Shown here in pieces: positions 24,370 to 40,661 of a DNA stretch of 42,973 nt; positions within the stretch are counted from its first letter, which is position 1, and the number at the start of each line of letters is the position of its first letter. Under the pieces are notes generated by a model. That model was not told the origin of the DNA. It was given only the letters and a program-made list of their open reading frames with translations, and ran no database searches. Source of the stretch: Kagunavirus LM08P1; sequence record OZ035812.1; one strand, given 5' to 3'. Both the position numbers and the translations under genes were made by a program.

Positions 24370-25790
24370 TTCTTACTCCTTCTCTTCATATAATTAAGTA
24401 GTTCATCCTGTACAGACCTTTTCTCGTCTGTACGCGCGGCGACAACTTCATCAAGAGTATCTCTGGCTATTATTTGATAAATGAATACAGACCGTTTGTA
24501 CCCAGACTGCATCTGCCTTACTGGGCCTATACGCTCGATAACCTGCAAATAATGTTCCAGGTTCCATCCCTGACTCATAAATGCCATGTGATGCCCGCCG
24601 TGTTGTAGCGACAGCCCGTGACCCGCGGAGGCTGGGTGTATCAGGAGCATAGGTATCTCCCCTCGGTTCCACGCTTCCATCTGCTTATTACCCTTCGCAC
24701 CTTTGGCAAACGCCTGTGCCTGCGGGAATCGCTTAAGGATGCGCTCCAGTTCGTGCTTGAACTGATAGGCTACCAGCAACGGTGCGCCCTGTAATTCCTC
24801 AACAATCGACTCCAGCGCATCCAGTTTCGTGTCGTGCACTTTCTCCCAGTCTTTCGTTGCCTCACCGTCTGGCCCCGACACATATACGGCACCGGAGGCA
24901 ATCTGCAAACACTTTGACGTCTTTGCCGCCGCGTTAGCCGCTTCAACTTCTCCGCTCTCCAGTTCCGCGAATAACTTCTCCTCCATATCGATGTACGCCT
25001 GACGCGCCTTCTTCGGCAGGTCGATTTCAACCGGAACAATAATCGGCGCTTCACAACCAAACCACTCGGCGGGGTCGATAGTCAGGCTGATGTCTTTCAT
25101 CTTCTGATGAATCTCATTATCAGCGCCAGGGCGCGCATGATACTCCCGCGCCATCGCCGACTTACCTTTCTGTACCGAGTTAAACCAGCGGTCGGTGAAT
25201 GCGGTGTATGATGAGCCAAGGCGCTCGCCTGCGTCGATAAACCAGTTCTGGCCCCACAAGTCTTTGAGGCCGTTTGGCGACGGTGTACCAGTCAGGTTGA
25301 TAAAACGCTTAACCTTTCCGAACGCCACTTTACTTAGCGCCTTCGCCCTCTTGCTACCGCCAGACCGGCTACGGAATGATTTAAGCTTCGTGCTTTCATC
25401 GGCAACAATAACAGTAAAAGGCCAGTCGTCTTTGCCATAGTAGTCAATCAGCCACTCGATAACTTCGTAGTTTGTACACACCACGTTAGCGTCAGACTCC
25501 AGCGCCGCGATGCGGCGCTTCTCTGAACCTGTCGCATCGACGACGCGCAGACAAGGGAATTGCCATTTCTCTTGCTCTGCGGGCCACGTACCTGATGCAA
25601 CGCGCAACGGGGCGAGGATTAACACGCGGTCCCCTTCGGCAAGCTGCCCATTACGGAACAGGCGGTTTAAAACCCACATAGTAGAGGAGGTTTTACCCCC
25701 TCCCATGCCGCACCAGATATTACAGCGCGGATGCTGTAGCATGAACGAAGTCATGAGCTTCTGGTATTCGCGCCTTTGAAACTTACTCAT
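24366..25790 (-). CDS. ATP-dependent helicase (SF2, DEAD/SNF2-like)
   Basis: 474 aa; Walker A-like CGMGGGKTSS, DExx-like VIVADEST; C-terminal helicase-like region. Confidence 0.7.
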   Translation of the reverse strand: MSKFQRREYQKLMTSFMLQHPRCNIWCGMGGGKTSSTMWVLNRLFRNGQLAEGDRVLILAPLRVASGTWPAEQEKWQFPCLRVVDATGSEKRRIAALESDANVVCTNYEVIEWLIDYYGKDDWPFTVIVADESTKLKSFRSRSGGSKRAKALSKVAFGKVKRFINLTGTPSPNGLKDLWGQNWFIDAGERLGSSYTAFTDRWFNSVQKGKSAMAREYHARPGADNEIHQKMKDISLTIDPAEWFGCEAPIIVPVEIDLPKKARQAYIDMEEKLFAELESGEVEAANAAAKTSKCLQIASGAVYVSGPDGEATKDWEKVHDTKLDALESIVEELQGAPLLVAYQFKHELERILKRFPQAQAFAKGAKGNKQMEAWNRGEIPMLLIHPASAGHGLSLQHGGHHMAFMSQGWNLEHYLQVIERIGPVRQMQSGYKRSVFIYQIIARDTLDEVVAARTDEKRSVQDELLNYMKRRSKK

Positions 25791-32295: not shown

Positions 32296-32784
32296 TTATT
32301 CTTCTTCGAAATACTTGTTCTTGATTGCCGTCAGGCGTTCCAGGTATTCGGCCAGGTCTTCGTCTTTAATCGCGGCAATCTTCATCTTCTTACCGGTGAA
32401 CTCTTCCAGCAGTTCATCGGAATCATCGCACGCGGCATCGCTCGGACCTTCATTAATCGCATCGTCGATAGCCTGAATCTGATCACGAAGAGACTGGTAA
32501 TCGACTTCTTCTTTCTCTTCTTGCGGCTCTGGCGTTGGCTCCTCTACTTTAGGTTTACGCGGCTTGCGTTTCGGCTTCTCTTCTTCTGCCGGTTTAGTGT
32601 CGACGAGGTCTTCACCTTCTACCGTGATTTCTTTTGTCGCTTCTTTCGCAACAACATCACGAACACTATCTGCGATGTTTGCATCTGCCTTAAGTTCATA
32701 CACAGGTTTTTTCGCGCTATTCGCAGCAATCAGTTCATGCGCAACTACGAAACGTTCCAGTAATTTTAAGAATTGGTCTAACAT
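32296..32784 (-). CDS. highly acidic hypothetical protein (first gene of minus-strand early operon)
   Basis: 162 aa, very high Asp/Glu content with a central KPKRKPRKPK basic patch; RBS GAGGAGAG; immediately downstream of promoter 32816..32845. Confidence 0.55.
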   Translation of the reverse strand: MLDQFLKLLERFVVAHELIAANSAKKPVYELKADANIADSVRDVVAKEATKEITVEGEDLVDTKPAEEEKPKRKPRKPKVEEPTPEPQEEKEEVDYQSLRDQIQAIDDAINEGPSDAACDDSDELLEEFTGKKMKIAAIKDEDLAEYLERLTAIKNKYFEEE

Positions 32785-32815
32785 TTGTTTCTCTCCTCTC
32801 GTTTGGTATGGGCTA

Positions 32816-32845
32816 ACTATAATAGCGAACTATTCATGTTGTCAA
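32816..32845 (-). promoter_or_regulatory. sigma70 promoter (TTGACA-N18-TATAGT) with palindromic core (family 2), minus-directed
   Basis: Minus strand reads TTGACA acatgaatagttcgctat TATAGT; core TGAATAG-N4-CTATT; divergent from HTH regulator gene. Confidence 0.55.
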
Positions 32846-35984: not shown

Positions 35985-36031
35985 CCAAAACTGAACACAA
36001 AGTTACTAAGATACAAAAGATGCTACTGGTA

Positions 36032-36060
36032 TTGACTTTTACTTAAAAATATGCTAAGCT
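36032..36060 (+). promoter_or_regulatory. sigma70-like promoter (TTGACT-N17-TAAGCT, extended -10 TG) driving structured RNA element B
   Basis: Hexamers identical to 5163..5191 with same spacing but diverged spacer. Confidence 0.55.
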
Positions 36061-36066
36061 TCACTG

Positions 36067-36300
36067 AGCTTGTGAGATATCGCAAGCGACCGCGGAGCGG
36101 CAGGGAACGCAACGCGTGCCATTAGGCACTTGAGTGTAGTTCCGCTGGCGCTTTCGGAAGGGCCAAAGTCTATTGTTAATCCCGCCTAAATACCCAAGTC
36201 ACTGATAATTAAAAGTTTCTATAGTTGCCGTAAGCAAGGTGGAGAGTACTTCACTCCGCTGGGGTGGGCTAACGCCCACCCACTGCGTTGCGTACTCTTT
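36067..36300 (+). ncRNA. candidate structured noncoding RNA / leader element, copy B (unidentified family)
   Basis: Shares conserved sequence blocks with copy A; compensatory hairpin differences; ends in long hairpin (36242..36296) followed by CTTTT; no conserved ORF. Confidence 0.5.
36242..36300 (+). terminator. terminator-like long hairpin closing RNA element B
   Basis: GAGAGTAC...GTGGGC-TAAC-GCCCAC...GTACTCT followed by TTTTAAG. Confidence 0.45.
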
Positions 36301-36340
36301 TAAGAAACGAAAGAATCACAACGGCAACGTAACTTTTCTC

Positions 36341-36373
36341 TTGCACACCCCAACATAATAGGATACTATTCAC
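36341..36373 (+). promoter_or_regulatory. sigma70-like promoter with palindromic operator-like core (family 1), plus-directed
   Basis: TTGCAC-N17-TACTAT with CATAATAGG in spacer; 22 nt upstream of RBS GAGGAGTGAGGG of 36395. Confidence 0.55.
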
Positions 36374-36394
36374 TTATAGAAACGAGACAGAGGA

Positions 36395-36592
36395 GTGAGG
36401 GTTATGTTTAAACGTGGTCAGTTGGTTAAAGCTGTAAATAGCAATTATTTCATTGTTGAAAGCGAGTCTGCAGTTTTTCCGGGGGCTTATAGGGTAAGTT
36501 TTCTCGGGGAAAGATTAGGAGCAATAACCTGGTTCCGTGGAGATGAGCTAACACTCATCGGCAACAATTTTAAATTCAAAGGGGCGAAGTGA
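36395..36592 (+). CDS. hypothetical early protein
   Basis: 65 aa; strong RBS; first gene after promoter. Confidence 0.5.
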   Translation: MRVMFKRGQLVKAVNSNYFIVESESAVFPGAYRVSFLGERLGAITWFRGDELTLIGNNFKFKGAK

Positions 36593-37775: not shown

Positions 37776-37808
37776 CTTGCACACACAGATATAATAGACT
37801 ACTATTCA
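37776..37808 (+). promoter_or_regulatory. sigma70-like promoter with palindromic operator-like core (family 1), plus-directed
   Basis: TTGCAC 37777..37782, 17-nt spacer containing TATAATAG, -10 TACTAT 37800..37805; upstream of ATG 37835. Confidence 0.55.
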
Positions 37809-37834
37809 GTTATCGAAACGAGAGGAGAGAGAAG

Positions 37835-37972
37835 ATGGGCTGGTACGGTAGCTGGGCATTAGGTGAACTGGTAGACGCTTACGAAATAATGGGTAGCACT
37901 TCGGTATGCGACGGTGACACTAAATCGCTGCTAGTCGGGGTCGATGAGAAAAGGGGTGAAGACGATGAATAA
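37835..37972 (+). CDS. small hypothetical protein (45 aa)
   Basis: ATG 37835 with RBS GAGAGGAGAGAGAAG; the longer track ORF 37697..37972 would start upstream of its own promoter. Confidence 0.4.
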   Translation: MGWYGSWALGELVDAYEIMGSTSVCDGDTKSLLVGVDEKRGEDDE

Positions 37973-38120
37973 TTTCGTGGTGCAAGCAATGTACGCTGAG
38001 GAAATGGCAAAAAGTATGTTAGAGCAAACATTACATTTCGCTAAGCTGCAAGGGTTCGACGTACAGACAGTAGGCGACGAAATAGTATTGACCGAGAAGT
38101 CGGAGAACGGCGATGAGTAA
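37965..38120 (+). CDS. small hypothetical protein (51 aa)
   Basis: Manual ORF; RBS AGGGGTGA; stop overlaps next start. Confidence 0.4.
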   Translation: MNNFVVQAMYAEEMAKSMLEQTLHFAKLQGFDVQTVGDEIVLTEKSENGDE

Positions 38121-38571
38121 CAATGACGAAGTATTCGAGTACCTGATTGACCAACTACGGCAGCAGGTAAACAACAAGTGCGAAGACCTGGCGCATGAGG
38201 TGCAGTCACTTAAGAATCAGTTACGTGATATGTCGGAGCTGGTGGACGAGCTACTCGGGACAATAACGCTAATGAACGGGGATGTAGAGGCGTACAAAGT
38301 TCTACGCAAAGGTGGGTACGTTAATGGGGGTCAGCGATACGTAGTAGGAGAACACGGACCTGAGCAATCTGGTTGCCGTAAGGAAGACGTTCAGGAATGC
38401 GTGCACGAGTGGGCGCTTGATGAAAAAGGTGACTACTTCGTTTGCACTAAATGCGGTAAGCAAGAGGCGGAATTGAACGATTGCCAACACACTAATACCG
38501 TTGGTTTGCGTAAGGGTTTTGCGCCGGGGTTTACTATAAAGTGCCTGGATTGCGGGGCTAAACTGAGATGA
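38113..38571 (+). CDS. hypothetical protein with Cys-rich (zinc-ribbon-like) C-terminal half
   Basis: 152 aa; paired CxxC-like motifs (CTKCGK ... CLDCGAK). Confidence 0.5.
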   Translation: MSNNDEVFEYLIDQLRQQVNNKCEDLAHEVQSLKNQLRDMSELVDELLGTITLMNGDVEAYKVLRKGGYVNGGQRYVVGEHGPEQSGCRKEDVQECVHEWALDEKGDYFVCTKCGKQEAELNDCQHTNTVGLRKGFAPGFTIKCLDCGAKLR

Positions 38572-39436: not shown

Positions 39437-39701
39437 GTTATTCTGGTTCGCCGTAATGTTGGCGATGGGCGCTTCGTCCCTGTTCAACGTGTATAATGAA
39501 TGTGTTGACGACGGGCTATTCGGTCGGGTGCTCTATATCCTGACTGCTATCGTCTGCGCCGCCGGATGTATCCACCTGTTACAGGGCAGCATGTCACCTA
39601 CGCTGCCAGAAACCTTAATCACATTAGTTGCGCTGCGCCAGATTCGTCAGGCGTGGCTGTCATACGGAGGACATAAGCGTGTCTCGAAATATTTCAGATA
39701 A
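39429..39701 (+). CDS. second small membrane protein of lysis cassette (holin/antiholin-like)
   Basis: ATG 39429 after GGAGG; 90 aa with two hydrophobic segments; overlaps endolysin start. Confidence 0.4.
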   Translation: MNELFWFAVMLAMGASSLFNVYNECVDDGLFGRVLYILTAIVCAAGCIHLLQGSMSPTLPETLITLVALRQIRQAWLSYGGHKRVSKYFR

Positions 39702-40164
39702 TGGATTGCATTTTACCGCTGCGTTTGAGGGATTCCGTGGAACCGCGTATCGTGCTACACCAAACGAGAAGTACTTAACCATAGGCTACGGGCACTACGG
39801 GCCAGACGTGACCCCCGGTAAAACCATCACCCCGGGCCAAGGCCTCCTGTTACTGAATCGCGATATGGCTAAAGCCGTAGCTGCGGTTGATGCAGCAGCA
39901 CGCCATTCATTGACACAGGCACAGTTCGATGCAGTGTGCGACCTGGTGTATAACGCTGGTGCTGGTGCCATTGCGGCTACTACAGGCACGGGTAAGGCCC
40001 TGCGTTCCGGTGATATTTCGACGCTGCGGGCTAAGCTGACGCTGTTCATCAACCAGAACGGCAAACCGTTACTCGGCCTGCGTCGCCGTACCGCAGGCCG
40101 CCTGGCGCTGTTCGATGGTAAGCCGTGGCAAGAGGCTGAGGCTATCGGGAGGGCTGTTAAATGA
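39679..40164 (+). CDS. endolysin (lysozyme-like muramidase, GH24-type)
   Basis: ORF frame 39628..40164; proposed GTG start 39679 with GGAGG upstream; motif FEGFRGTAYRATPNEKYLTIGYGHYG consistent with phage lysozyme catalytic region (from memory). Confidence 0.75.
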   Translation: MSRNISDNGLHFTAAFEGFRGTAYRATPNEKYLTIGYGHYGPDVTPGKTITPGQGLLLLNRDMAKAVAAVDAAARHSLTQAQFDAVCDLVYNAGAGAIAATTGTGKALRSGDISTLRAKLTLFINQNGKPLLGLRRRTAGRLALFDGKPWQEAEAIGRAVK

Positions 40165-40294
40165 TGGACGAATATGAAGGCGTTTAGTAAACTTATCCCT
40201 ACGCTGTTTGTGCTTGCATACTAAGCCCCGGTAAACCCGAAGCAGCAGCCCAAGCGGTGGAGACTGCGTAGGGTTCAGGGGCTTATGACCGAAA

Positions 40295-40322
40295 CCCGGA
40301 CCGCGAATCCGGGTTTTATTTT
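40295..40322 (+). terminator. intrinsic terminator
   Basis: CCCGGA-CCGCGAA-TCCGGG hairpin followed by TTTTATTTT. Confidence 0.65.
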
Positions 40323-40327
40323 ACCAA

Positions 40328-40356
40328 TTGACACCTAAGACTAATCCGACGATACT
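40328..40356 (+). promoter_or_regulatory. candidate sigma70 promoter (TTGACA-N17-GATACT)
   Basis: Perfect -35 and plausible -10, located between two terminators. Confidence 0.45.
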
Positions 40357-40362
40357 TAAATC

Positions 40363-40428
40363 ACCTCCTGTTCCATCCCTCTGCTCTCCAGTTTTATCCC
40401 GGCCCTGACCCAGCCGGGATTTTTTTTA
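40363..40428 (+). ncRNA. candidate short RNA (about 65 nt) with pyrimidine-rich CCUCC segment
   Basis: Bounded by promoter 40328..40356 and terminator hairpin CCCGGC...GCCGGG plus T8 (40398..40428); no ORF. Confidence 0.35.
40398..40428 (+). terminator. intrinsic terminator
   Basis: CCCGGC-CCTGACCCA-GCCGGG hairpin followed by ATTTTTTTT. Confidence 0.65.
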
Positions 40429-40449: not shown

Positions 40450-40478
40450 TTGACTATTACCATCGACCCTATTATATT
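40450..40478 (+). promoter_or_regulatory. candidate sigma70 promoter (TTGACT-N17-TATATT) containing CCCTATTATAT core
   Basis: Upstream of gene starting 40512; shares CCCTATTATATT with family-1 elements. Confidence 0.45.
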
Positions 40479-40511
40479 TACTCCATCGACAACGAGAACG
40501 GAGTATAGAAG

Positions 40512-40661
40512 ATGAAAATCACAGATATCGAAGCATTCAAAGACGCACAACTGATGGCACGTATCGCCGTTAGTAACCTTAGTAGCAGTATCCCCGCTGA
40601 CGCGTTCTGGTTCGCAGCGATGCAGACCCTGAAAGCAGCTTATGCAGGAGAGAAGAAATGA
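40512..40661 (+). CDS. small hypothetical protein (49 aa)
   Basis: Manual ORF; RBS ACGGAG; stop overlaps next ATG (ATGA). Confidence 0.4.
   Translation: MKITDIEAFKDAQLMARIAVSNLSSSIPADAFWFAAMQTLKAAYAGEKK

Follow-up and report, generated by a model that had tools for sequence, protein, structure and literature searches.

A conserved promoter-terminator unit of Guernseyvirinae phages that may encode a trans-acting anti-Shine-Dalgarno RNA

Downstream of the endolysin gene of Kagunavirus LM08P1 lies a self-contained unit of promoter, short non-coding RNA and terminator that is conserved in the two genera Kagunavirus and Jerseyvirus of the Guernseyvirinae. It is very probably an undescribed, functional and conserved non-coding RNA gene, and a new phage sRNA family is the probable classification. 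Our main reading, to which we give a rough probability of 0.55, is that the unit encodes a trans-acting small RNA (sRNA) of about 65 nt that would pair with Shine-Dalgarno (SD) regions. The parts of this reading differ in strength. A discrete RNA is likely to be made from the unit; that it acts by base pairing at ribosome-binding sites is somewhat favoured over its not doing so; and that its main targets are the phage's own leader cassettes is a tentative proposal.

The window is the whole stretch of 42,973 nucleotides of LM08P1 (sequence record OZ035812.1). The region is 99% identical to Escherichia phage BUCT789 and Kagunavirus LM08P2, and the window, a Kagunavirus (Guernseyvirinae), is collinear with the genome of phage K1G. 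Terminase, head and tail genes are on the plus strand, followed by replication genes on the minus strand and then by small ORFs, holins and the endolysin on the plus strand; no RNA polymerase gene is found among the annotated genes of these phages. The unit starts at 40328, between the endolysin (39628-40164) and the small-ORF block leading to the terminase genes, and thus stands downstream of the endolysin where a reading made from the LM08P1 sequence alone (the sequence-only reading) had put it. Deposited annotations have at most 'promoter' and 'terminator' at this place. Elsewhere in the window, about 320 bp between the divergent minus-strand and plus-strand blocks (36017-36340) are non-coding and contain a G+C hairpin, GGGTGGGC-TAAC-GCCCACCC, at about 36262-36281; this stretch might serve as a control region or origin. 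The elements of the unit are as follows.

40292..40322, plus strand: upstream intrinsic terminator T1, recognized by its fold, with a 10-bp stem and UUUUAUUUU tail, within an insert of about 160 bp
40328..40356, plus strand: promoter P1, with -35 TTGACA (40328-40333), 17-nt spacer and -10 GATACT (40351-40356)
40363..40427, plus strand: predicted sRNA of 65 nt, from the presumed start A40363 to the end in the U8 run
40363..40369, plus strand: 5'-terminal anti-SD-like ACCUCCU, of which only CUCCU is conserved across genera
40373..40389, plus strand: core seed CCAUCCCUCU (40373-40382) followed by the clade-specific GCUCUCC (40383-40389)
40390..40395, plus strand: U-rich single-stranded AGUUUU, directly 5' of the hairpin
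40396..40427, plus strand: terminator T2, an 8-bp hairpin AUCCCGGC-CCUGACCCA-GCCGGGAU (40396-40420) with a 9-nt loop, then U8

The hexamers of P1 match the consensus at 10 of 12 positions. One promoter-like match alone is not significant, with 11 such matches found in the surrounding 4.5 kb against 4.3 expected, and it is because of the comparative evidence, not the single match, that the arrangement of P1, RNA and terminator is taken to be more than chance. We collected 57 copies from GenBank and IMG/VR, of which 42 were unique (alignment A3), and in these 42 the hexamers and their 17-nt spacing are kept. Mean pairwise identity in A3 is 0.98 for both promoter hexamers, 0.64 for the spacer and 0.60 for the discriminator/start region. 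The spacer occurs in at least four unrelated versions, all of them 17 nt long (LM08P1 and TPH05A are only 12% identical here), and across these the promoter has, in silico, the form TTGAC(A/G)-17-(G/C)ATACT. Hexamers and spacing conserved over a free spacer are a classic sign of a working promoter, and the TTGACA-N17-GATACT promoter of the sequence-only reading is in this way borne out at 40328-40356.

At least five unrelated upstream contexts all join exactly at the -35 TTGACA of P1, and in many relatives the blastn match starts with the first T of this hexamer. Most relatives have the TGA stop codon of the endolysin gene inside the -35 and are without an upstream terminator, from which T1 is seen to be a lineage-specific addition. 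The description of the unit as lying between two terminators consequently applies to this lineage, where T1 and T2 are both present, and not to most relatives, which are without T1. A simple terminator scan listed neither of the two; the 9-nt loop of T2 exceeds the limit of that scan. The insert that carries T1 (40165-40327) separates the endolysin from P1, is missing in most relatives and has a possible 16-aa hydrophobic ORF, MKAFSKLIPTLFVLAY, at 40174-40224; a 30-aa ORF is annotated at the equivalent place in TPH05A. A different insertion, of about 95 nt, is found between the P1 -10 and the seed on the reverse strand of IMGVR_UViG_3300015181_000003. It has perfect 14-nt terminal inverted repeats, GTTAGGCGAGTAGT ... 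ACTACTCGCCTAAC, follows exactly after GATACTTA, resembles a miniature mobile or palindromic element and would give the RNA a structured 5' extension.

The -10 of P1 is followed by UAAAUCACCUCCUGUUCCAUCCCUCUGCUCUCC. The start of the RNA, A40363, was placed by its distance to the -10 (7 nt after it), and from here to U40427 the predicted transcript has 65 nt, so that sequence and fold agree with the earlier description of about 65 nt ending in a terminator hairpin. The 5' 33 nt are predicted to be unpaired and to be followed by the hairpin, and the same fold was obtained for all five divergent variants folded. The strongest constraint in the RNA falls on the core UCAUCCCUCU at 40373-40382. The tract as a whole is C/U-rich (14 C and 3 G in 35 nt), and all clades retain, just 5' of the hairpin (40390-40395 in LM08P1), a U-rich stretch of the form UUU(U/C)AU, which matches the published Hfq-binding module. 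T2 has a folding energy of -13.8 kcal/mol (z = -3.5). A stem of 8-10 bp and a tail of U7-U14 vary among copies, and hairpin and tail are present in every one. One pair of the stem is compensatory, C-G in Kagunavirus having its counterpart in U-A in Jerseyvirus, and there is one G-U variant; 92% of its cells in the alignment are paired compared to 21-51% when the partner is slid. The loop, CUGACC(C) at 40404-40412, is also conserved across genera.

The anatomy of enterobacterial Hfq-type sRNAs is that of a promoter and a short RNA without structure, followed by a U-rich stretch, a hairpin of G+C and at least seven U. In silico, the unit has its own conserved promoter, a conserved unstructured seed and a terminator with at least seven U after the U-rich stretch. 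The proposal that it is the kind of unit that makes a trans-acting sRNA accordingly fits a self-contained promoter, short non-coding RNA and terminator with that anatomy. The anti-SD stretch to which the sequence-only reading had drawn attention, CACCUCCU, fared less uniformly. The single-stranded part is indeed anti-SD-like, but CACCUCCU is specific to Kagunavirus and is not the conserved element: its counterparts are CUGCUCCUG in Jerseyviruses and CACUCCUU in RP180, and only CUCCU is common to the subfamily. Moreover, its first base is probably upstream of the transcription start.

The unit is not a coding sequence. Its only overlapping ORFs are two mechanical ones with TTG starts, 26 and 28 aa long, and the gaps between genera in A3 are 4, 2 and 4 nt. 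Since these are not multiples of three, there is no conserved reading frame, and a coding role was rejected; the absence of an ORF asserted earlier is thus confirmed. A cis-antisense RNA of the OOP/Sar type was rejected as well, the opposite strand having only a 28-aa TTG-start ORF with a frame that is not conserved.

By blastn, the unit is present in 444-450 phage records, nearly all of them Guernseyvirinae (about 110 Escherichia/Kagunavirus and about 330 Salmonella/Jerseyvirus), and 430 records cover at least 80% of the Jersey module. The conserved module is about 190 bp long and consists of P1, the short RNA, T2, a second promoter P2 and its leader, with mosaic genes on both sides and about 77% identity between the Kagunavirus and Jerseyvirus versions. 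Within the RNA part of A3, mean pairwise identity is 0.92-0.93 for the hairpin arms and 0.58 for GCUCUCC after the core (AGCUCC in Jerseyvirus); for the core, CAUCCCUCU, it is 0.97, a value inflated by the retrieval of most IMG/VR copies with a core-containing pattern. A search anchored in P2, free of the core condition, returned the rare core variants CAUACCUCU, CACACCUCU and CAUCCAUCU. Outside these phages, no match to similar DNA was found in 5,426 complete E. coli genomes, and among one genome per GTDB species the only matches were three small contigs of the Taishania pollutisoli assembly (NZ_JACVEL01, Bacteroidota). These carry Jerseyvirus DNA with the endolysin end, the sRNA module and P2, and are most likely assembly contamination.

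A third Guernseyvirinae lineage, Salmonella phage GRNsp27 (ON720976.1, 21990-22150), has the same synteny of lysin, terminator and promoter. The terminator is kept but the C/U-rich seed is not; the piece before the hairpin is a different one of about 24 nt, UAUUCCACCCAGCCAGCUUUG, the -35 is weak, and the leaders are without the AACGAGA motif discussed below. As an independent test of covariation this lineage was uninformative, with seed and leaders both different and a best match of 9 nt (P = 0.047).

The terminator without the seed in GRNsp27 is one of several observations in line with a simpler view, in which the unit is operon punctuation only. Here, T2 would end the lysis operon, the C/U tract would be a spacer or a Rho-loading (rut-like) backup, P1 would be an auxiliary early promoter with read-through adding to P2, and there would be no function in trans. 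The exact position at the operon boundary, with the endolysin stop in the -35 in most relatives, the C-rich and G-poor composition of the tract, and the existing annotations are all compatible with this. Neither a spacer nor a rut site needs a near-invariant 10-mer, however, and a promoter that feeds downstream genes would not precede a strong hairpin and U7-14 in every copy, the more so as P2 stands directly downstream and is itself near-consensus. We consider punctuation alone unlikely, although it is the foremost of the alternatives to an sRNA.

If the unit encodes a trans-acting sRNA, its partners may be sought in a family of promoter-leader cassettes shared by these phages. They have the form TTGAC/TTGCAC-17-TAnnnT ... 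AACGAGA, a purine-rich SD and ATG, and are conserved across Kagunavirus and Jerseyvirus, with a mosaic first ORF behind each. Their appearance is that of portable expression cassettes placed where recombination has its boundaries. Four were located in the window.

36341..36406, plus strand: cassette PL1, ... AACGAGACAGAGGAGUGAGGGUUAUG; candidate target
37777..37837, plus strand: cassette PL2, TTGCAC-N17-TACTAT ... AACGAGAGGAGAGAGAAGAUG; best candidate target in Kagunavirus
40450..40514, plus strand: cassette P2, TTGACT-N17-TATATT (promoter 40450-40478) with leader CAUCGACAACGAGAACGGAGUAUAGAAGAUG; candidate target
32782..32845, minus strand: cassette PL4, in the replication-gene block; weak candidate target

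P2 is co-conserved with the sRNA together with its 5' UTR as far as the ATG, and in Schulenburg the operon headed by PL2 runs through the holins and the endolysin to T2. The PL2 operon also encodes a 152-aa protein of unassigned function (38113-38571, plus strand; phrog_6094) with CxxC pairs in its C-terminal half, which is possibly a zinc-binding regulator. Outside the subfamily, Escherichia phage Phagiculus (Drexlerviridae, T1-like) has at 595-640 the leader TTCATCGACAACGAGATGGAGTTAGAGAAATG, directly after a terminator hairpin. Because this leader is nearly identical to the Guernseyvirinae P2 type, it suggests that the leader cassette moves between phage families.

The sRNA resembles the reverse complement of the cassette leaders. 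In Kagunavirus, CCAUCCCUCUGCUCUCC of the sRNA faces GGAGAG(A)CAGA(AG)AUGG of PL2, and in Jerseyvirus, AUUCAUCCCUCUAGCUCC faces GGAGCUA(A)GAG--AUGAAU, so that the change between clades in the sRNA (CU vs AG) is mirrored in the PL2 leader (AG vs CU). When all annotated initiation regions of Schulenburg and Jersey were ranked, leader cassettes made up two of the top five in both genomes. The duplex energy of the Jersey sRNA summed over three leaders is -71.2 kcal/mol compared to -45.1 +/- 6.3 kcal/mol for composition-matched shuffles, none of 1000 of which reached it, and the Jersey gp54 leader has a 12-nt perfect match to the sRNA. Structure-aware co-folding in Jersey gave P = 0.005 for PL1, 0.010 for PL2 and 0.05 for P2. 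Cognate pairs were better than pairs swapped between genera by about 4-10 kcal/mol in both directions (9 PL2 by 6 sRNA variants).

In Kagunavirus, the energies between sRNA and leaders are about -13 to -19 kcal/mol, no better than those of composition-matched shuffles (P = 0.09-0.26; PL2 variants, P = 0.03-0.13), which means that any RNA of such composition would pair with the Kagunavirus leaders. A general anti-SD effect on all phage initiation regions was rejected, being significant in Jersey (0 of 200 shuffles) and not in Schulenburg (0.235). The specificity of pairing rests mainly on Jerseyvirus, and the covariation of sRNA and leader at the clade level is essentially one evolutionary event. 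Some variants of the sRNA are uncompensated in the leaders, namely G to A in CUCUGCUC and GAUU vs UAUU. Target prediction, recommended by the sequence-only reading, hence gave a divided answer within the phage genomes: Jersey leaders stand out by duplex and co-folding energy at P<=0.01 (PL1 and PL2), and Kagunavirus leaders do not rise above shuffles. Computationally, the best lead lies in the phage's own leader cassettes and not in ribosome-binding sites in general.

Several other sites were considered. A perfect complement of the core was not found elsewhere in these phage genomes, for which reason it is quite possible that the core serves a host target. The closest sequence to such a complement, with one mismatch, is the TerL initiation region UAGAGGAAUGA, conserved in both genera; it is a weak candidate only (P = 0.29 and 0.047 by duplex, 0.26 and 0.08 by co-folding). 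In a whole-genome RNAduplex scan the real sRNA was no better than shuffles. A 15-bp contiguous match in the helicase gene (about 24955-24973, minus strand) was rejected: the site is unchanged in Jersey, where the sRNA is unable to pair with it, and it is broken in K1G. The T2 loop is complementary to GG(G)UCAG at 36416-36422, codons 5-7 of the first ORF after PL1 (MFKRGQLV...). The evidence for this pairing is mixed, with one change compensated (Jersey) and two uncompensated; the loop variant of K1G/K1ind1 is not compensated.

In another alternative, the RNA is a decoy or sponge for proteins. Instead of base pairing, it would titrate a host RNA-binding factor, with the U tail and U-rich module binding Hfq or the C-rich tract binding Rho, or else it would be a general mimic of the anti-SD of 16S rRNA. 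The 3' end resembling an Hfq module is kept in all clades, the composition is C-rich and G-poor, and affinity for the Kagunavirus leaders is a matter of composition, not of order. Furthermore, the 10 nt at 40359-40368, AUCACCUCCU, are identical to the E. coli 16S rRNA 3' end. This identity is confined to Kagunavirus and not conserved in Jerseyvirus, which speaks against mimicry; the sequence-specific complementarity in Jerseyvirus and the near-invariant core argue for base pairing instead. We regard a sponge as very improbable.

Base pairing could also take place within one molecule. Whether it forms the 3' UTR of the operon from PL2 to the lysis genes or is part of read-through from P1, the C/U tract might fold onto the leader SD of the same transcript and tune its translation, comparable to the 5'-3' UTR pairing of S. 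aureus icaR. The tract is complementary to PL2 at the head of the same operon, and when a read-through RNA was modelled, its minimum-energy fold had CUCUGCUCUCC paired with the SD of the P2 leader; this fold is nevertheless no better than shuffles (z = -1.3). An element acting in cis would leave the conserved P1 unexplained, and in LM08P1 T1 ends the operon before the tract. Such a role appears improbable, somewhat less so than a sponge.

We return to an sRNA acting in trans, for which the following course of events may be envisaged. P1, a near-consensus host sigma-70 promoter, would start transcription at about A40363. The predicted RNA would join an unstructured C/U-rich 5' part (CUCCU, the core and GCUCUCC) to the U-rich stretch and to a strong terminator with its long run of U. 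In most relatives this piece doubles as the 3' end of the lysis operon, so that the RNA could come both from P1 and from the operon 3' UTR. Pairing of its C/U-rich part with purine-rich SD/AUG regions would decrease translation or stability of the target mRNAs. The best-supported candidates are the AACGAGA-SD-AUG cassettes that head operons driven by host RNA polymerase, one of them with the lysis genes, and the RNA might in this manner be a built-in brake or timer on cassette-headed operons. One speculative extension is a self-targeting timer, in which the 3' end of the lysis operon, with its own promoter, gives an RNA that pairs with leaders including that of the holin/endolysin operon; we hold this to be a possibility on the doubtful side.

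A short terminated RNA from a strong promoter upstream of the terminase, head and tail block also brings to mind antitermination as at lambda pR'-6S-tR'. P1 would then be constitutively active and give a leader that is short and terminated, until a phage factor allowed transcription past T2 to reach the small ORFs, the terminase and the structural genes. No Q-like protein was detected among 20 small ORFs scanned against PHROGs, the initial transcribed sequence ACCUCCUGUUCCAUCCC has no -10-like pause element (TAnnnT-like), and with a near-consensus P2 directly after T2 read-through is not needed. Of the alternatives, we find this one the least credible.

No Rfam 15 family reached its gathering threshold in the whole window. 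The best match was RF02278 (Betaproteobacteria toxic sRNA) at 25 bits against a threshold of 50, mostly through the terminator and UCUCC, and membership was rejected on the score and on the different lineage and host range. Other sub-threshold matches scored at most 20 bits and were nearly all trans-acting sRNAs. A literature search yielded neither a study of sRNAs, transcriptomes or RIL-seq data in these phages nor any text with the seed sequence.

Whereas regulatory RNAs of temperate phages and prophages have been documented well, hardly any are on record for strictly lytic siphophages. The Guernseyvirinae (Jersey-like, K1-type) are common isolates for biocontrol and therapy of Salmonella and E. 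coli. If the reading is correct, the conserved sRNA and the cassettes would be a simple handle on expression and lysis scheduling in these phages, and a timer RNA would couple operon shut-down and lysis timing to RNA accumulation without a protein regulator. About 450 deposited genomes would receive one more annotation.

Judged by its sequence features, the RNA probably belongs to a known kind, that of phage-encoded, Hfq-type, anti-SD sRNAs at the 3' end of an operon. Like the Hfq-dependent type I 3'-UTR sRNAs of enterobacteria such as DapZ and MicL, it has in most relatives a promoter that reaches into the end of the preceding coding sequence and an intrinsic terminator in common with the operon; a short unpaired seed, a U-rich stretch 5' of the hairpin and the long tail of U are further points of agreement. 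Unlike these, it is encoded by a virulent phage, its use of Hfq is putative and there is no sequence or Rfam relationship; in LM08P1, T1 and the 160-bp insert separate the unit from the operon. The known phage-encoded sRNAs reviewed in PMC12197685 include lambda OOP, PreS/LPR1 and 6S, P22 Sar, P1/P7 c4, VP882 VpdS, and EHEC AgvB/AsxR, and this review does not mention Jersey-like phages. With these the predicted RNA shares its short length, a host-type promoter and an intrinsic terminator, and several of them use Hfq and act on SD regions. Almost all of them, however, are encoded by temperate phages or prophages, and cis-antisense RNAs are frequent among them, whereas here we deal with a strictly lytic siphophage subfamily, with no gene on the opposite strand and with candidate targets 0.1-4 kb away on the same strand. 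The pyrimidine-rich anti-SD sRNAs (RF02278, the S. aureus UCCC-motif RNAs and the icaR 3'-UTR) have a comparable C/U-rich single-stranded anti-SD motif with a terminator after it; RF02278 differs in lineage and hosts, as described above. Finally, the lambda pR'-tR' 6S RNA is likewise a short terminated transcript (here predicted) from a strong constitutive promoter adjoining lysis and late genes, but in the Guernseyvirinae no Q homologue was found, the pause element is missing, and an independent promoter follows right after the terminator.
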